From the NCBI GenBank assembly GCA_964244895.1, contig CAXTKV010000161.1, positions 1 through 12,465 of the forward strand: DNA of 12,465 nucleotides. The letters run 5' to 3'. Numbering within the stretch: the first letter of the stretch is position 1; each line of letters starts with the position of its first letter. Both the position numbers and the translations under genes were made by a program. Shown one piece after another: positions 22 to 10,643 of this stretch. Source of the stretch: an uncultured Deinococcales bacterium. Lineage in GTDB: Bacteria > Deinococcota > Deinococci > Deinococcales > JAAFIG01. A model generated the notes under the pieces. That model was not told the origin of the DNA. It was given only the letters and a program-made list of their open reading frames with translations, and did no database searches.

Positions 22-977
22 AAGCCGTTAGCCACACTTCGCTTGACACGCCCGAGCTGTTTGAGTCATGGATCATGCGGCTGGGTCAAGCAAACATGAT
101 TCCAACGCCTCGGCTGGTCGAAGTATTGCAGCTTCGTCACGCGTTGTCGTCCTCGAATCATGTTTCTGCAGACGCTTTCCAACTACTCTCGAGTGTGACA
201 GGCGTATCGGATGTCCGAATCCGCGAGTCTCACCTGACGACTTTCAGTCGATACACGGAGTCCGTTTACAATGTCAAGTATGTCATTCCCGCCCGTACCC
301 AAGCTAAGTATTCAATTCCTTTTAAACCTTGCCCTCGCTGTCTAAACGAGTCAGATCGACCATATATTCGTCTGCATTGGGCGCTGGATCTCAGCTGCTT
401 TTGCGCCGTTCATCATTCGGTCCTGCTGGCCCGGTGTGTCAAATGCGGCAGTTTCTTTTCTCTCAAAGTGACCGAACCTGAGATTCCAATCCACCAATGC
501 CGCAAGTGTGGGTTCGATCTGCGCAACATCACCCCACGCGCTACGCCAGGGTTCGCAGAAGCCATCACTTTCCAAACGCGCCTCCTCGAGATGAAGCGAG
601 ACGCTGTCGTCAATTGGCCTGGAATTCGCTTGAAGGAACCCGCTGCGTTCGCTCAGATCGTTCAACGCCTCTTCCGAGCGCTTTGTGACACTCCGAGCCA
701 TCACGCACTCAGCGAGTTTACAGAGGAGTCATTCCGCTCGAACGTCCATCTGTTGGACGACCGATTCTCCTTTGAAATCAGAAGAACCAATGCGCTTTCC
801 ATGACAGCTTGGTTCCTGAGTAAACCAAGCTCGCATTGGGCAGCGCTCGGCCCACATCTCAGGCGGAATCTTCCATTGGAAGTGAGCGACAGGATCGCGG
901 TGGCCATGTGGCACGCTTTCAACGCTGCAGCAGCTTCAGTCGGTGTGCTCGAGCGGTCGAACGCGCTGACCTCGTGA
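18..977 (+). CDS. tniQ: TniQ family target-selector protein (319 aa)
   Basis: N-terminal PELFESWIMRLGQAN matches the TniQ E-x-x-SW-x-x-RL-x-x-x-N pattern. The Zn-finger cluster CPRCL...PYIRLHW...CAVH...LLARCVKCG...CRKCGFDL is characteristic of TniQ/TnsD. The length fits TniQ rather than a long TnsD. Confidence 0.9.
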   Translation: MKAVSHTSLDTPELFESWIMRLGQANMIPTPRLVEVLQLRHALSSSNHVSADAFQLLSSVTGVSDVRIRESHLTTFSRYTESVYNVKYVIPARTQAKYSIPFKPCPRCLNESDRPYIRLHWALDLSCFCAVHHSVLLARCVKCGSFFSLKVTEPEIPIHQCRKCGFDLRNITPRATPGFAEAITFQTRLLEMKRDAVVNWPGIRLKEPAAFAQIVQRLFRALCDTPSHHALSEFTEESFRSNVHLLDDRFSFEIRRTNALSMTAWFLSKPSSHWAALGPHLRRNLPLEVSDRIAVAMWHAFNAAAASVGVLERSNALTS

Positions 978-3688
978 AGCAGTTCGGACTCGAAGTTTGG
1001 GGCGATTTTGCGTGTTTCTCTCGGCCCGAATTGAAAGTCGAGCGTTACACATATCCGGTCATCACGCCGAGCGCCGCTCGCGCCATCTTCGACGCGATTT
1101 ACCTCAACTTTGATGGCGGTACGCCAAATCGCCCCACCTTTCGCTGGCAGGTAAGACGCATCGAGGTGGTCGAACCCGTGCACTACATTGCGCTGTCCCA
1201 GAACGAGGTCAAAGGGAAAATCCACACTGACAAAGTAGCGCTGTGGATGACGCACTCGGAGCAAATCGAACCTTTGATCGCCGACGCACGAGGCAAAGGA
1301 ACGGAAGAGTACGGTCGGACCCAGCGCCAAACGATTGGCCTGCGACGGGTGCGCTACCGGTTGTTCGCCGAGGCGGTGCTGTACGAGGAGAATCACACCC
1401 TGAGGCAGCTCATCGAAAAGATCTTCGCGCGACGCGCCCGCGCCGGCCAGTGCTACCACCAGCCGTGCCTCGGGCAACGCGAGTTCGGAGCGTACTTCGA
1501 GCTGGTCGAGACGCAAAGTGGACGCTGCGCCGCCGTCAACGAGGACATCGGCTGGATGGTCTACGACGTGTTCGACCTGTCCCGACCGGGTTCGAGTTCG
1601 GACCCGTGGAGTATCAGCACATTTCGCGCCCACGTCCGGGATGGCGTACTCGAGGTTCCACCGTACTCAAGCGAGGACGTCCACAAGTCAGGTTTGGCGC
1701 AATCGTTGCGCGAGCGTGGAAGTCCCCAAGTCGGGTCTGGCGCAACTGGGATGTTCGAAGCGCTCGTCGAGTACGCTCGGCGTACGGGGCTGGCGACCGA
1801 ACCGGGGTTCAGCGAGAAGGTCGTCCGCTGGATAGCGAACGTGAATCTTGATGGGGTGATCACGTCGGTCGCCCCTGCTGATCCCCTCAAAGGCCGTGCG
1901 GTCGTGTTCGCGTGCTGCCCAGATTTGCAACTCCCCGCGATCAAGGCGCTACCGGCGGCGCTCGGGAGGATGGAAAATGGGATCGCCGTTAAGCAAGGTG
2001 CGCACTTCCTCGCGGACACGTGCAGCACGGTTGGTCTGTTCCCGAACGGGTTGGACAGCAATCACAAAATCCTCGACAAGCACCGAGTTTTCACCCATCT
2101 AATCGAGCGGGCGAGTTGGATCATTCCCGAACTTCGACCAATTCATAGCGCACTGTCTGAGGCGAGTTTCCTCGTTCAGATACACGCCATGTTAATCGGG
2201 TGCGGGGCGAAACCAACGGATCGCCTGTCGTTCTCAGTCGATGGAGTTCCGGTGCCCGACATGAACGTCTGGCATTCTTGGTGGCGGGCATTCCGTGAAG
2301 AGGCATCCCCACGCAAACTGGAACGCAACATGGTGTGCCTCGCCACGGGAGAACGCGTCGTTCCAGCGAGAACGCATCCAAGACTCACCTCGCTGGGCGT
2401 GGGCGCTTCGAGTGTTGGAGCCAGCCTGATCGCCTCTGGCAAAGAAGCGTTCAGCTCGTCGAGCTTCCGTCAGGGTGAAAACAGCGCGCTCTCGGAGGAC
2501 GCCGCTTCGGCCTACACATCCGCGCTCGATCACCTGTTGCGCAGAGCGCCCGTCATCGACGGAACAAAAGTTGTTCACTGGTACAGCACCGATACGTCGA
2601 CGAGCCTCGATCCGCTCGCGCTGCTGTTTCAGCCCAGCGAAGTGCGCGAACTCGAAAATTTTTCATCTCGAACGTCCCTCACCAGCAGCGAAATTCGCGC
2701 GTTCGCCGACTGGCCCGGTTTACCCAATGCGCAATACCACGTCATGGTCGTGCGAGGCGCGAAGGCGCGCGCCCGCGTCAGGTTTTTTGCCTCTGGCACA
2801 CAGGAGCAGGCGGTGGCGGCGGTGAGCGCATGGTTCGCTGATTTAGAGGTCTGCACCATCTCTGGCGACGGCTCAACGAGCGCAACGCCCGCCAAACTCT
2901 TGGCGTCCATCAAGAAACCCATTGACAACGACAACGCGGAGGGGAACCGGAACAAGACCTTGCATTCCCTGCACGTTCGGCTCTGGCAGACTGCCCTTGA
3001 CCCGGCGGTTCCGGTGCCGATCTCGGTCGCGAACGACATCTTGACAACTCTCTACCGCAGTCTGGCGAATCGAGACTTCCAGAAAGCCGTGGCGTACACG
3101 CCCGCAACGTGGAATTCCACGTTGCGAGACACGTTACACGCTTGCATGGGGGGCCTCAAGGGGTATCTCGTCCGCGCTGGCGACCACGACATCACTGTCA
3201 ATCTGAACCCAAACCACCCGAGCGCGAATTATCAATCCGGTCGCTTGGCGGCGCTTCTTCATCGGATCGAGGAAATCGCTAACTCAAACCCGAGCAGTAA
3301 CAGTCACCAGGTATTTGCAGCGTCCATCGCAGGATTGATCGAAAGGCTTGATCGGCAGACGCGAACCGTCAAACGCAGCTTGGATTGGATCGCTGCCGCA
3401 CGTCCGTGGTTGGCCTTGGCGCTCGAATCGTATCTCGAGCGCATCTGGGAAAGCCTCGGCAGTGCTGTGCCCAGAAACAACAGTCCCAAAGCTCGAAGCC
3501 TCTTCATCCTCGGGTACTACCAGCAGCTCGCGTTCAACAATTCGAAACGTACCGCCAATCCAGCAGCTGAGTTCGATCTCGAAGACGGGGACGACACGAA
3601 TGAGGAAATGGATGACCTGTTTGAAACTATCGCAGACCAATCGGGGATGTCAGTCCAAAGTGATGACAACAAGGAGAGACACGAATGA
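974..3688 (+). CDS. cas5c-cas8c: Fused type I-C Cas5c (Cas5d) - Cas8c (Csd1) protein, about 904 aa from GTG 974
   Basis: The N-terminal part has Cas5c motifs (LEVWGDFACFSRPELKVERYTYPVITPSAARAIFDAIY, GQCYHQPCLGQREF). After a G/S-rich linker, MFEALVEYARR at 1751 begins Cas8c, with MVCLATGE...ARTHP, GASLI, YQSGRLAALL and FILGYYQQ motifs. No stop lies between the two parts. GTG 974 overlaps the tniQ stop (GTGA), so it is preferred over the ORF-track start at 836. Confidence 0.9.
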   Translation: MKQFGLEVWGDFACFSRPELKVERYTYPVITPSAARAIFDAIYLNFDGGTPNRPTFRWQVRRIEVVEPVHYIALSQNEVKGKIHTDKVALWMTHSEQIEPLIADARGKGTEEYGRTQRQTIGLRRVRYRLFAEAVLYEENHTLRQLIEKIFARRARAGQCYHQPCLGQREFGAYFELVETQSGRCAAVNEDIGWMVYDVFDLSRPGSSSDPWSISTFRAHVRDGVLEVPPYSSEDVHKSGLAQSLRERGSPQVGSGATGMFEALVEYARRTGLATEPGFSEKVVRWIANVNLDGVITSVAPADPLKGRAVVFACCPDLQLPAIKALPAALGRMENGIAVKQGAHFLADTCSTVGLFPNGLDSNHKILDKHRVFTHLIERASWIIPELRPIHSALSEASFLVQIHAMLIGCGAKPTDRLSFSVDGVPVPDMNVWHSWWRAFREEASPRKLERNMVCLATGERVVPARTHPRLTSLGVGASSVGASLIASGKEAFSSSSFRQGENSALSEDAASAYTSALDHLLRRAPVIDGTKVVHWYSTDTSTSLDPLALLFQPSEVRELENFSSRTSLTSSEIRAFADWPGLPNAQYHVMVVRGAKARARVRFFASGTQEQAVAAVSAWFADLEVCTISGDGSTSATPAKLLASIKKPIDNDNAEGNRNKTLHSLHVRLWQTALDPAVPVPISVANDILTTLYRSLANRDFQKAVAYTPATWNSTLRDTLHACMGGLKGYLVRAGDHDITVNLNPNHPSANYQSGRLAALLHRIEEIANSNPSSNSHQVFAASIAGLIERLDRQTRTVKRSLDWIAAARPWLALALESYLERIWESLGSAVPRNNSPKARSLFILGYYQQLAFNNSKRTANPAAEFDLEDGDDTNEEMDDLFETIADQSGMSVQSDDNKERHE

Positions 3689-4725
3689 ATCCGATCCAGA
3701 ACCGATACGAATTTCTAATCATTTTCGACTGCGAAAATGGCAACCCAAATGGCGACCCCGACGCTGGGGATCTGCCCCGTATGGACATTGAGGACGGGCA
3801 CGGTCAAGTCTCATCTGGATCAATCAAGCGACGAATTCGCGATTACGCTCACCTGCTCGGAGAAGCCATCCTCATTCAACGCTCGAGCAACATCAACAAA
3901 TCGATTTTTGAGGCTCGCGAGCAAACCGGCGATCCAAACGCCACTCCCACCATCAAACGTACGCAGGACGCCACCGCCTGGCTCTGCGAGAAGTTTTTCG
4001 ATGTGAGAACCTTCGGTGCAGTGCTGAGCACCGGCGCGAACGCGGGTCAAGTCACCGGCTCCGTGCAAATCAACTGGGCCAGAAGCATCGATCCCGTCCA
4101 CGTGATAGAAGCCACCATCACCCGAGTCGCTGTCACGGACAAGGCCGATGGAGCCAATTCCGTCGCGGACTTTGAAGATTGGGAGGCTGGGGAGGCCAGC
4201 GGTAGACTTCAGACGATGGGCCGCAAAAGCTTCATTCCCTACGGACTTTTTGTGGCCCCTGGCTTTGTGAGCGCGTTCCAGGCCCAGAGAACGGGCTTCT
4301 CGGAAGGCGATCTTGAGATTCTCTGCGAGGCCATCATGAATATGTTTGAACACAGCCGAACGTCGAGCAAAGGCATGATGTCAACCCGTCGGCTGATCGT
4401 ATTCAAACATTTGGGAACGAGAAAAGACCCTGAGCAGCAGGCACAGCAAGCCAAACTGGGCTGTGCACCTGCCCATAGGCTGCTCACGCTAGGACAAGTG
4501 GTCAGGATCCTTCGCCAAGATAAAACGCGACCGCCGAGAACCTACGCTGACTATACGGTGTCAGTGGATCAGAGCCAACTTCCAGTAGGCGTAGCCATGC
4601 TCGACCTCACCGTTTGGGATGCCGACGAGTTCCACAATGGATGGGTAGTGAAGCGCGAATCTCCAGTAGAGCCCGAAATCCGCAGAGGTTCGCGGAACAA
4701 GAGGACACCGTCAGGAACGAAATAA
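3685..4725 (+). CDS. cas7c: Type I-C Cascade backbone Cas7c (Csd2), 346 aa
   Basis: Motifs NRYEFLIIFDCENGNPNGDPDAGDLPRMD, IKRRIRDY, FFDVRTFGAV, TMGRKSFIPYGLF, AQRTGFSEGDL, MFEHSRTSSKG and LGCAPAHRL are typical of Csd2. There is an AAGGAG RBS and an ATGA overlap with the cas8c stop. Confidence 0.96.
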   Translation: MNPIQNRYEFLIIFDCENGNPNGDPDAGDLPRMDIEDGHGQVSSGSIKRRIRDYAHLLGEAILIQRSSNINKSIFEAREQTGDPNATPTIKRTQDATAWLCEKFFDVRTFGAVLSTGANAGQVTGSVQINWARSIDPVHVIEATITRVAVTDKADGANSVADFEDWEAGEASGRLQTMGRKSFIPYGLFVAPGFVSAFQAQRTGFSEGDLEILCEAIMNMFEHSRTSSKGMMSTRRLIVFKHLGTRKDPEQQAQQAKLGCAPAHRLLTLGQVVRILRQDKTRPPRTYADYTVSVDQSQLPVGVAMLDLTVWDADEFHNGWVVKRESPVEPEIRRGSRNKRTPSGTK

Positions 4726-4830: not shown

Positions 4831-5078
4831 GTCTTCACGGCTTTATCGCCGTCGAGATGATTGAAACAACCCGCAACTCGCCGGACCGGCCATCGGTTCG
4901 ACCGCAGACCGTCTCCACGGCTTTATCGCCGTCGAGATGATTGAAACTGCTGCGAGGTCAGCAGCACCGTCCAGCCTGCGCCGAGTCTCCACGGCTTTAT
5001 CGCCATCGAGATGATTGAAACCGCAGCGAACTCGCGCTCTACCGGGGCTCCGAGCGTCTCCACGGCTTTATCGCCGTC
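4831..5078 (+). CRISPR. Mini CRISPR array: three full 37-bp repeats, one truncated terminal repeat, three spacers (43, 37, 34 bp)
   Basis: Consensus GTCTCCACGGCTTTATCGCCGTCGAGATGATTGAAAC at 4831-4867 (one change), 4911-4947 and 4985-5021 (one change), with a 23-nt partial copy at 5056-5078. The repeat has an ACGGC/GCCGT hairpin and a 3' ATTGAAAC handle. Spacers are 4868-4910, 4948-4984 and 5022-5055. Confidence 0.95.
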
Positions 5079-5249
5079 TATACGACTGGCCCCCGCTGAA
5101 ATCATCGCGCTGACGGCAGGTCTCAAAGTCTTCATAAGGTTTTGATTATCAGTCGAAAATTTACTGGGCATTTGTCGAAATTGGATCAAGATTCCAATCG
5201 TTCTGTTGGATGTATGCTCTTCTCGTTTAAAACGCTCAATCCATTGAGC

Positions 5250-5309
5250 GCCTCTACAACCCTTGGTTGTCGAGATGATTGAAACCACCGACAGATCATC
5301 GAAGGCGTG
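5250..5309 (+). CRISPR. Delocalised atypical repeat (5250-5285) plus putative homing spacer (5286 to about 5309)
   Basis: GCCTCTACAACCCTTGGTTGTCGAGATGATTGAAAC shares its last 17 nt with the array repeat and keeps the hairpin as ACAAC/GTTGT. The following CACCGACAGATCATCGAAGGCGTG matches minus-strand 5617-5594 at 17/24 positions, next to TTC. Confidence 0.85.
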
Positions 5310-5400
5310 TTTTTATGGATACCCAGATCTTGCATCTTCCAAAAAGCACAAAAGCTAAACCGCAGAATTGTTAAACGTTTCAAAACTAACCATGATTTAT

Positions 5401-5550
5401 TGCTGACGTGGCTAACGATAAAATCCTTTAGGTTCACGAATCAAATTGACGTATAGAACGGAGATGTTTACGATTCCCAAGATTACTGACGTGGCAAACG
5501 ATACTGACACGTCAAACGATCATTGCTGACATTTTAAACGAAAAGCCACA
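5401..5550. repeat. Transposon end: five TnsB-binding-site-like direct repeats and terminal ACA (5'-TGTGGCTT on the minus strand)
   Basis: The motif CTGAC-N5-AAACGA occurs at about 5403 (ctgacgtggctaacga), 5446 (ttgacgtatagaacgg, degenerate), 5486 (ctgacgtggcaaacga), 5504 (ctgacacgtcaaacga) and 5526 (ctgacattttaaacga). The last copy is about 9 bp from terminal ACA at 5550. This fits Tn7-family TGT...ACA end architecture. Confidence 0.85.
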
Positions 5551-5555
5551 CGATG
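5551..5555 (+). other. Predicted 5-bp target-site duplication (CGATG)
   Basis: These are the five bases right after the terminal ACA, and Tn7-family elements make 5-bp TSDs. The second copy cannot be seen in this window. Confidence 0.45.
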
Positions 5556-5569
5556 CCTGACTCAGCACC

Positions 5570-6421
5570 TCAACCCTTGACGCCCGTCAGAACGACACCC
5601 TCGATGATCTGCTTCTGGAAGATCACGAACACCGCCAGCACGGGAATCACGGCCAAACTGGAAGCCGCCATGATCAACTGCCATTGCGAGCCCGTCTCGC
5701 CGCTGAAACGCGCGATGCCGAGCGGCAAGGTGAACAGGTCAGCGCTGGTCGTGACGATCAACGGCCACAGGAACGCGTTGTAATTACCCAGGAACGTGAA
5801 GATCGCCAGCGCCGCCAGCGCGGGCCGCACGAGCGGCAGGCCGATCTTTGAAAACAAGCCGAATTCGGAGAGTCCATCCAGGCGCGCGGCATCGAAGAGC
5901 TCGTCCGGGATGCCCTCGAAGAAACCCCGCATCAAAAAGACGCCGAAAGCCGAAATCAATCCCGGCAGGGCGATCGCCAGATACGAATTGTTGATGCCGA
6001 GCTTGATCGCGCCGACGTACCACGGGATGACCAGCATTTCCGTGGGGATCATCAGCGTTGAGAGGATCACGACGAAAATGATTTCCTTGCCGGGGAATTT
6101 CATTTTGGCCAGCGTGTAGCCGACCAGCGAATCGAAGAACAGCACGCTGGCGGTCGTGGCCGCCGCGACCCCGATGGAGTTCAGGAACCAGCGCGGGAAT
6201 TCGGTTCTGGACAGGATTTCAACGTAGTTGCCGAGCGTCGGCACGGCCCGCGCGGGCCAGATGCCGGGTTGCAGCGCGTCCGCGTAGCTTTTCAGGCTGG
6301 TCAACAGCATCCACACGAACGGGAAGGCCGTGACGATGCTGCCCGCGATCAAGAGCGCGTAGACCCACCACGGCCCATCGCGCCGTTTTTCTCGAGGTTG
6401 CTTCATCGCACCCGCCGCCAT
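5570..6421 (-). CDS. Carbohydrate ABC transporter permease (MalG/UgpE-like), 283 aa
   Basis: Multiple TM helices, PFVWMLLTSLK, the EAA-loop variant IPDELFDAARLDGLSEF, NYNAFLWPLIV and C-terminal FQKQIIEGV. Start is 6421 or the ATG five codons later. Confidence 0.95.
   Translation of the reverse strand: MAAGAMKQPREKRRDGPWWVYALLIAGSIVTAFPFVWMLLTSLKSYADALQPGIWPARAVPTLGNYVEILSRTEFPRWFLNSIGVAAATTASVLFFDSLVGYTLAKMKFPGKEIIFVVILSTLMIPTEMLVIPWYVGAIKLGINNSYLAIALPGLISAFGVFLMRGFFEGIPDELFDAARLDGLSEFGLFSKIGLPLVRPALAALAIFTFLGNYNAFLWPLIVTTSADLFTLPLGIARFSGETGSQWQLIMAASSLAVIPVLAVFVIFQKQIIEGVVLTGVKG
5594..5620 (-). other. Putative protospacer (5617 to 5594) with 5' TTC PAM (5620-5618) inside the 3' end of the permease gene
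   Basis: The minus strand reads TTC|CAGAAGCAGATCATCGAGGGTGTC versus spacer CACCGACAGATCATCGAAGGCGTG. TTC is the established type I-C PAM and is exactly in register with spacer position 1. Confidence 0.75.
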
Positions 6422-6449
6422 CCGCTCACCCGCCTCTCGAGCGAGAGAA

Positions 6450-6493
6450 CACCGTCCTGGACGCGGTACTCGAACACTGCGTCCAGGACGGTG
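6450..6493. repeat. REP-like palindrome copy A
   Basis: Perfect 15-bp arms CACCGTCCTGGACGC (6450-6464) and GCGTCCAGGACGGTG (6479-6493), between the two permease genes. Confidence 0.75.
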
Positions 6494-6504
6494 GTCTCGC
6501 CCTT

Positions 6505-7478: not shown

Positions 7479-7591
7479 ACCCCGAACCGAAGTTGTACAC
7501 ACCGAACCGAGCGGACTCGAGCGCCAGACCTCGCTCGTCTTTGGGGTGAAGCTCCAAAGAAGCCCGAGCCGATCTCGTTATGAAGGGGGAA

Positions 7592-7650
7592 ACCGTTCAG
7601 GACTCATTTTCTCGAGCATCCGATGTTGCGTCCTGGACGGTCTTCTCGAG
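7592..7650. repeat. REP-like palindrome copy B
   Basis: Arms ACCGTTCAGGACTC (7592-7605) and GCGTCCTGGACGGT (7628-7641) with 2 mismatches, followed by CTTCTCGAG. The loop resembles that of copy C. Confidence 0.65.
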
Positions 7651-7921
7651 CGTCGAGGGCTTCGCGCCCTGAGCTTCAACCGACGCCGATCTGAACGGTT
7701 TGCGCGAAGGACGAGCCGTGCGCCCGACCGAGGATCGTCGAGCAAAATGCGATCCGAGAACAGCGGATCTGTCTGCAACGACAAAAATGTTTGGTAGCGC
7801 ACGTGAAGAAAGCCGAGGGAATCCATAATTTTTTGACATCGAAGGCTCGAGCGAGCACCTGAAAAGCGCCCGTCCACATCGAGATACCGCAACTCCTTCG
7901 AGGAATTCATCAGGGGGCGAC

Positions 7922-8866: not shown

Positions 8867-8919
8867 GCTTCAGATCGAAACGCGTTTCGAGTCGGGCAAT
8901 CCCTGCGGGCGACCTTTGA

Positions 8920-8983
8920 AGAAGACCGTCCGGGACGCGTTTTTTCGAGCATCAAACGGGGCGTCCCGGACGGTCTTCTCGAG
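8920..8983. repeat. REP-like palindrome copy C
   Basis: Perfect 19-bp arms AGAAGACCGTCCGGGACGC (8920-8938) and GCGTCCCGGACGGTCTTCT (8961-8979), ending in CTCGAG. Confidence 0.75.
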
Positions 8984-10569: not shown

Positions 10570-10639
10570 CTCGAGGAAAACCGTCTGGGACGCATTTCTT
10601 CGAGATTCAGATTTCGCGCGCTGGACGGTATCTCTCGAG
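10570..10639. repeat. REP-like palindrome copy D (degenerate)
   Basis: CTCGAGgaaaACCGTCTGGGACGC ... GCGCGCTGGACGGTatctCTCGAG, immediately after the stop of the kinase gene. Confidence 0.6.
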
Positions 10640-10643
10640 GCCG

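Follow-up and report, generated by a model that had tools for sequence, protein, structure and literature searches.

CRISPR-associated transposons (CASTs) of the I-F3 (Tn6677) type carry a Cas8-Cas5 fusion throughout the family, and a separate Cas6 processes their CRISPR RNA (crRNA). The available portion of Rybarski et al. (2021, bioRxiv 10.1101/2021.08.16.456562) names their layout TniQ-Cas8/Cas5-Cas7-Cas6, and it also describes nine putative type I-C CASTs, which have Cas5, Cas7 and Cas8, lack a CRISPR array and homing spacer, and carry TniQ beside TnsABC. Putative I-C CASTs were again described without a recognisable array in 2024 (PMC11300857). The DNA considered here, termed the window, is a whole contig of 12,465 nucleotides (nt; G000:C161) from an uncultured Deinococcales bacterium, whose metagenome-assembled genome (MAG) comprises 328 contigs and is 91% complete with 2.3% contamination. 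It contains a transposon-borne I-C module in which cas5c and cas8c form a single open reading frame (ORF). The probability that this is a genuine, lineage-specific fusion, which arose through a duplication of ~43 nt and gives a single product of ~100 kDa, is put at about 0.7.

The fused gene, its parts and the two copies of the duplication are located in the window as follows:

974-3688, + strand: fused cas5c-cas8c ORF of 904 codons, from GTG at 974 to TGA at 3688, with no internal stop
974-1687, + strand: Cas5c moiety, residues 1-238, ending ...EDVHK, with Pfam, NCBIfam and PDB sequence matches
1688-1750, + strand: linker of 21 residues, 239-259, with the sequence SGLAQSLRERGSPQVGSGATG, predicted to be disordered
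1751-3688, + strand: Cas8c moiety, residues 260-904, from the ancestral Met, its C-terminal part with a Cas11c-like fold
1670-1702, + strand: copy 1 of the duplication, SEDVHKSGLAQ in the cas5c frame, which forms the working C-terminal end of Cas5c
1713-1745, + strand: copy 2 of the duplication, SVEVPKSGLAQ(LG) in its own frame, the former C-terminal end of Cas5c, abutting ATG 1751

The start of the fused ORF overlaps the tniQ stop (GTGA), and both domains are full length within one frame, as a preliminary description of the window had claimed. Its claims of a linker of about 20 residues and of an ancestral Cas8c Met at 1751 were likewise correct: the linker has the sequence given there, and residue 1 of stand-alone Cas8c proteins aligns to query residue 260, which is ATG 1751. 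This alignment comes from a phmmer search of the fused protein against 1.84 billion representative proteins, which gave 3355 hits at E <= 1e-3, the best 150 of them listed. Among the matches listed, stand-alone Cas5c proteins cover query residues 1-241. Queried in full against a word index, the fused protein matched its own database entry and no other. Pfam assigns Cas_Cas5d (PF09704) to residues 6-229 (5.4e-22) and Cas_Csd1 (PF09709) to residues 268-852 (1.2e-48). The NCBIfam Cas5c model (TIGR01876) matches residues 6-236 with 105 bits against a cut-off of 85, and the Cas8c/Csd1 model (TIGR01863) matches residues 412-859 with 138 bits, which is under its 218-bit cut-off. Type I-C Cas5c chains in the PDB match by sequence over residues 5-236. 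A 12-sequence alignment of Cas5c has 28 invariant columns, and the window protein retains every one. The effector gene order is cas5-cas8-cas7, each gene with an I-C family match (PF09704, PF09709, PF05107).

Forward frames 1, 2 and 3 are all open over 1680-1833, so that no stop is masked by a frame error. Taken together, the in-frame fusion is almost certainly real at the level of the predicted gene, and the ORF is probably translated as a single protein. The junction peptides of this predicted product are ...DVHKSGLAQSLR and ...GSPQVGSGATGMFEALVEYAR.

The structure of the fused protein was predicted with AlphaFold2 from a 40-row alignment that included natural fusions. The model has a mean predicted local distance difference test (pLDDT) score of 82 and a predicted template modelling score of 0.75. 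Segments with pLDDT below 50 are residues 101-113, 241-256 (the linker), 490-498, 557-568, 868-876 and 891-904. The top Foldseek matches are the Cas8c (8dfs_I, 8g9t_K, 8dej_I) and Cas5c (8dej_A, 7kha_A, 3vzi) of I-C Cascade, and the C-terminus matches Cas11c chains. According to the part of PMC7684278 that was available, Cas5c and Cas8c are each present once in I-C Cascade, and Cas8c has a flexible N-terminus; a 1:1 tether between the two is therefore stoichiometrically sensible. A polypeptide of ~100 kDa would thus supply, in equal numbers and at the 5'-handle end of Cascade, the Cas5c that binds the handle and the Cas8c that reads the protospacer-adjacent motif (PAM). Assembled with Cas7c and with crRNA from the neighbouring array, it would give a Cascade that lacks Cas3 and that, by analogy with other type I CASTs, might pass its targets to TniQ/TnsABC.

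The junction itself contains the trace of how it formed. A direct repeat of 33 nt lies there, its copies starting 43 nt apart and agreeing at 28 of 33 positions. Nothing else in the window except the CRISPR repeats has a higher score, and when the 251-nt region was resampled 2000 times with a Markov-1 model, 23/33 was never exceeded; the repeat is more than chance. Translated in its own frame, copy 2 reads SVEVPKSGLAQLG, and in the frame in which it is actually read it gives (E)RGSPQVGSGATG, i.e. (E)RGSPQVGSGA. The nearest stand-alone Cas5c proteins end six residues past a Lys (K-LGMVML, K-LGIGVF, K-LGIEVL, K-LGLGVI). In its own frame copy 2 similarly reads K-SGLAQL, followed by GGA (1749-1751) at the exact site of the TGA of these relatives. 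In the Deinococcota loci whose junctions were inspected, the cas5c stop and the cas8c ATG overlap as TGATG. Elsewhere in the genome, a search for the origin of the linker returned chance matches of 13-18 nt only.

These observations suggest the following course. The ancestral cas5c would have ended with a TGA about six codons past ...VxK, overlapping the cas8c ATG (TGATG). A tandem duplication of ~43 nt (3n+1) at the 3' end of cas5c would then have shifted the cas5c frame into that of cas8c, so that the older Cas5c tail, now out of frame, would yield a Gly/Ser-rich stretch and, together with the new tail, would make up the disordered tether of 21 residues. Translation of the old tail in the wrong frame would explain the resemblance of the linker to a designed Gly/Ser tether. 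What is observed is the direct repeat with its reading frames and the low pLDDT of the linker; which came first, the duplication or the T-to-G change at 1749, is something that we infer. Since the copies differ at 5 positions and the repeat is shorter than the 55-nt contig overlaps, neither an artefact of the assembler nor a very recent event is likely. What is new here is apparently the mode of origin, by one small 3n+1 duplication.

The fusion is not unprecedented. A Cas5c profile searched against proteins longer than 448 residues (E <= 1e-5) matched 48 proteins, 28 of which contain both PF09704 and PF09709, namely the window's own and 27 others. The junctions of 16 of these 27 were inspected by eye, and nine (P0159, P0161, P0165, P0170, P0173, P0174, P0177, P0179, P0193) are clean in-frame fusions of Cas5c followed by Cas8c. 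In proteins such as P0159, the C-terminal end of Cas5c and the N-terminal helix of Cas8c are intact, and in all nine the linker is shorter than that of the window, which indicates that in several lineages an open frame goes together with a short tether. P0159 (NCBI MDI1495089.1, from a Cenarchaeum symbiont MAG), P0161, P0170 and P0174 form a clade with 44-90% identity in which all are fused, and 5 of the 7 members of the P0161 cluster are 827 residues long. The window protein is 38-40% identical to split Cas8c proteins and at most 31% identical to any fused protein; its greater closeness to the split forms points to an independent fusion event.

The other seven of the 16 were set aside on inspection by eye as apparent products of a frameshift or deletion: P0184, P0194, P0195, P0172 and P0182 have a stretch that looks out of frame, and P0163 and P0175 have a deletion at the junction. 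A protein from another search, P0035, a 592-residue NCBI MAG protein that runs from the C-terminal end of Cas5c into Cas8c, is ambiguous, as its start lies within Cas5c, on a contig of 3.2 kb, and it may be frameshifted.

A different combination, Cas3 helicase with Cas5c, is found in nine of the 48 proteins (P0164, P0166, P0167, P0168, P0176, P0178, P0180, P0183, P0192). Predicted Cas3-Cas5c fusions, too, recur in public data.

The fused gene is part of a transposon, the other features of which are:

1-55, no strand assigned: end of a multi-copy insertion-sequence-like repeat, adjoining the 5' end of tniQ or standing in its place
18-977, + strand: tniQ, 319 residues counted from GTG 18 in a frame that is open from nt 3, Pfam TniQ 2.6e-12
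3685-4725, + strand: cas7c, with an ATGA overlap with the fused gene, Pfam Cas_Cas7 9.4e-82
4831-5092, + strand: CRISPR array of three 37-nt repeats and a degenerate fourth, with spacers of 43, 37 and 34 nt
5254-5322, + strand: atypical repeat and candidate homing spacer, with a different 5-bp hairpin (CAACC/GGTTG) and the same 16-17-nt 3' handle
5399-5550, + strand: transposon right end, with three 22-nt TnsB-type sites (at 5399, 5482 and 5522, spanning 5399-5543) and the terminal 11 nt
5551-5555, no strand assigned: 5-bp target-site duplication CGATG, also present at the left end (G000:C202:8394-8398)
5581-5617, − strand: candidate protospacer within an ABC permease gene at its 3' end, with a 5'-TTC PAM at 5618-5620
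past the right end: host genes for a sugar ABC transporter, an FG-GAP protein and a 2-phosphoglycerate kinase

No cas3, cas1 or cas2 lies between tniQ, which overlaps the start of the fused gene, and the right end. The NCBIfam Csd2 model (TIGR02589) matches cas7c at 2.7e-79, with 266 bits against a cut-off of 182. The left end of the element lies on another contig of the same genome (C202, 8394-8552), where three to four inverted TnsB-type sites are followed by a TnsA_N match at the contig end. The two ends share a perfect terminal inverted repeat of 11 nt (window 5540-5550 against C202:8399-8409). TnsB-type matches occur on contigs C327, C198 and C102, none linked to the element. On this sequence evidence, the element is a Cas3-less, transposon-borne I-C module with real ends.

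The atypical repeat and its spacer are a candidate delocalised homing crRNA. The spacer matches 5581-5617 at 21 of 37 positions ungapped and at 15 of 17 in the core, with just 2 of the first 6 positions matching. The target-site duplication lies ~25 bp past the candidate protospacer's PAM-distal end. The TTC PAM of this candidate target matches that of D. vulgaris I-C, as given in the accessible portion of bioRxiv 10.1101/2022.06.15.496202. The CRISPR repeat was not found elsewhere in the genome, although arrays often go unassembled.

Among 364 genomes of the phylum searched for TniQ, a short tniQ beside cas5c is present only in the genome of the window (G000) and in G007, G008 and G018, which belong to the same family; in another five genomes the matching open frames are 492-528 residues long. 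The window tniQ is 32-41% identical to the three other cas5c-adjacent tniQ genes. Small arrays are also present in G007, G008 and G018, and the end of G008 has the same three-site layout, with spacings of 82 and 40 nt. In G018 (contig C136; L065, 1-450), the end of the related element lies beside a duplicated stretch of 100 nt, which could be an attachment site other than the ABC-permease site.

Short intergenic repeats at 6445-6498, 7586-7651, 8916-8983 and 10570-10640 of the window match many contigs on both strands and resemble repetitive extragenic palindromic elements.

Several observations weigh against the reading of a genuine, single-product fusion. The comparison with homologues that the preliminary description proposed as a check finds the fused state in no relative. 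It covers 46 related loci (15 genome contigs, 20 metagenome contigs and 11 from relatives of this genome), several of them identical or near-identical duplicates (e.g. L009 and L025; L013, L037 and L038), and two without a Cas8c match (L035 and L053). All 44 loci with both halves are split, and their stop falls 4-13 codons past the aligned end of Cas5c. They include all three of the other loci in which tniQ lies directly upstream of cas5c (G007, G008 and G018), each with a TGATG overlap. The best 120 shorter relatives are all Cas5c proteins of 233-264 residues with at most 65% identity, and the best Cas8c matches, among the best 150 of the 3355 hits, are 41-42% identical. With the fused lineage sampled once and its nearest relatives this distant, a conserved fused state would not be demonstrable. 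The fusion is known from the assembled MAG contig alone, and the single-polypeptide product is a prediction. In addition, one of the clusters with a clean fusion elsewhere, P0165 (>= 90% identity), mixes 4 fused, 7 Cas8c-length and 4 Cas5c-length members, which implies that such fusions can be errors or short-lived polymorphisms. The catalytic residues of Cas5c and the 5' end of tniQ, both described below, also count against this reading.

The same genome also holds a complete defence-type I-C operon on contig C36 (L076, 4916-12344), with the order cas3-cas5c-cas8c-cas7c-cas4-cas1 and with cas5c and cas8c split. This operon might provide crRNA processing or arrays in trans.

Among the loci compared, the fusion is specific to one lineage and is not a family trait. 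The preliminary description had proposed a convergent fusion after capture by a transposon. Its timing stands by parsimony, because the other tniQ-linked elements are split and the fusion would accordingly post-date the capture; as a feature of I-C CASTs the claim fails, the fusion being present in one of four tniQ-linked loci. Nothing indicates selection for transposition. The fusion is most likely tolerated or neutral and not required, since the sister elements work with split genes.

Cas5c has been described as having a catalytic triad of Tyr, Lys and His, of which the Lys is called invariant in the part of PMC8524198 available. In the window, the Tyr is found as Tyr43, where helix 1 ends, and Leu146-Ile147 (window 1409-1414) occupy the position of the Cas5c KH/KY dipeptide, as mapped by alignment on an F-x-R-R-A anchor and not by structure superposition. 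The triad is therefore incomplete, with Leu at the Lys position. Here 7KHA_A and 3KG4 have KH, the Cas5c of the C36 operon has KY, and Deinococcota relatives not linked to tniQ have KI. The Lys is present in nine distinct Deinococcota Cas5c proteins, eight without tniQ in the flank fetched and one from the tniQ-linked G018. At the same position Q is found in G007, P0224, P0225 and G008, the last also with K at the preceding residue, and V in P0014 and P0226. Among the nearest stand-alone Cas5c proteins with the same type of tail, the residue is Q or V. The loss of the Lys in split relatives as well makes it a trait of the clade and not a decay peculiar to this copy, and there may be a tniQ-linked clade with an RNase-dead Cas5c.

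At the 5' end of tniQ, the 50-55 nt with which the window starts also terminate at least six other contigs, which diverge right after; the body of this repeat is not in the assembly. The homology of tniQ to its relatives begins exactly at the repeat edge (...ELFESWI), and the WAIHP motif, found at the TniQ N-terminus in all three relatives, is missing. Together with the Leu at the Cas5c Lys position, this replaced 5' end means that the module may no longer be under selection.

From this follows the alternative that survives best, in which the fusion is real in the DNA and belongs to a decaying, immobilised element, as a neutral or mildly harmful lesion that has acquired no stops yet and would encode a non-working Cascade subunit. 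The replaced N-terminus of tniQ, the Leu in place of a supposedly invariant Lys and the presence of the fusion in one of the four tniQ-linked loci agree with this, as does the finding of only the left end and tnsA on C202, with tnsB and tnsC unlinked and tnsC not searched. However, the 904-codon frame, cas7c, the three repeats, the atypical repeat with its compensatory hairpin and the three TnsB-type sites are all intact. The copies of the duplication have diverged at 5 of 33 positions while the frame stayed open, and the Lys is also absent from split relatives. Decay of this kind is accordingly judged unlikely.

A second alternative is that the cell makes two forms, the fused protein and a free Cas8c whose translation starts internally at ATG 1751. 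This ancestral start is kept, and I-C cas8c genes use internal initiation to make Cas11c, as the available part of PMC7684278 reports; a preprint on the same subject is bioRxiv 10.1101/2020.04.18.045682. Against this, no motif resembling a Shine-Dalgarno (SD) sequence lies at a working distance from ATG 1751, where there is only GGG at a spacing of 0, which agrees with the lack of an obvious SD reported in the preliminary description. Unlike this start, cas7c (AAGGAGA upstream) and several host genes have an SD, and the stop/start coupling of the split ancestor has been lost. For Cas11c itself, none of the in-frame starts at residues 706-788 has an SD-like motif, and Cas11c chains match this C-terminal region in fold. 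Production of both forms is thus very improbable.

It is very improbable that the organism has truly split genes and that the fusion is an artefact of assembly or sequencing or a minority variant in the MAG consensus: the MAG is fragmented, several database "fusions" look like frameshift products and the P0165 cluster is mixed, but a diverged repeat with 43-nt spacing that is shorter than the contig overlaps is not an error of the kind assemblers make, no single substitution restores the split pair, and a 1-nt indel in the linker would extend cas5c to 1835 or 1851, an overlap of 85-100 nt with cas8c that is seen in 0 of the 44 loci.

The genuine, lineage-specific fusion with a single product therefore remains the preferred reading. 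A wider proposal can be made only tentatively, at somewhat less than even odds: the four genomes among the 364 would represent an undescribed family of array-bearing I-C CASTs in Deinococcota, with defined ends, a 5-bp duplication and an atypical-repeat homing guide. In the window, such an element would have a working PAM end made of one polypeptide and a Cas5c without the catalytic Lys, and its crRNA would mature by another route, for example through the host I-C Cas5c. If so, it would have the most compact type I CAST effector known, consisting of tniQ and two cas genes with no Cas6. If the fused protein works, Cas5c and Cas8c could be joined from N- to C-terminus by a tether of ~20 residues without loss of Cascade assembly, which would aid the shrinking of type I and CAST tools.

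The junction offers a clean natural case in which one 3n+1 duplication appears to have fused a gene pair with overlapping stop and start and recycled the old tail as a linker. By itself the fusion leaves the understanding of CASTs unchanged, as it is found in one MAG, has precedents and is not needed by the sister elements. The surrounding element is at least as important, since it has an array, a candidate homing guide and exact ends, as opposed to the I-C CASTs described without arrays or guides in the literature searched. The possible family of array-bearing I-C CASTs is the most valuable by-product.

Compared with known systems, canonical I-C Cascade (D. vulgaris, N. lactamica; 7KHA, 8DEJ, 8G9T) matches both moieties in fold and in sequence. 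Unlike the window, canonical I-C systems have separate genes, Cas3 and adaptation genes, and a Cas5c with the catalytic Lys. The fusions of other lineages, such as P0159, have the same N-to-C order and are at most 31% identical. The accessible text of Altae-Tran et al. (2023, PMC10910872) reports that Cas8 and Cas5 are fused in an incomplete I-C system lacking Cas3, which is proposed to be a DNA binder. As compared by description, that system shares the same two I-C subunits and the absence of Cas3 with the window, and the accessible text mentions no transposon link. In the literature searched, no description of a Cas5c-Cas8c fusion inside a CAST was found.

The I-C CASTs of Rybarski et al., as far as the available portion describes them, are Tn7-like, have TniQ and an I-C effector and lack Cas3 and Cas1/2, all as in the window. 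In contrast, the window has tniQ directly against the cas genes, contains a small array as well as an atypical repeat and candidate homing spacer, and encodes Cas5c and Cas8c in one gene, a fusion not mentioned in that portion.

The comparison with I-F3 CASTs is a functional one, as only I-C families match the window protein. Here Cas5c precedes Cas8c, the fusion is confined to a single lineage, there is no Cas6, and there is no sequence relation to the I-F3 protein, in which Cas8 precedes Cas5. The preliminary description was right that the two orders are opposite, but the difference lacks the meaning given to it, because each order simply follows the gene order. What the two have in common is that the large subunit and Cas5, which are neighbours at the 5'-handle and PAM end, are joined in one polypeptide, or predicted to be, within a transposon-borne type I effector.

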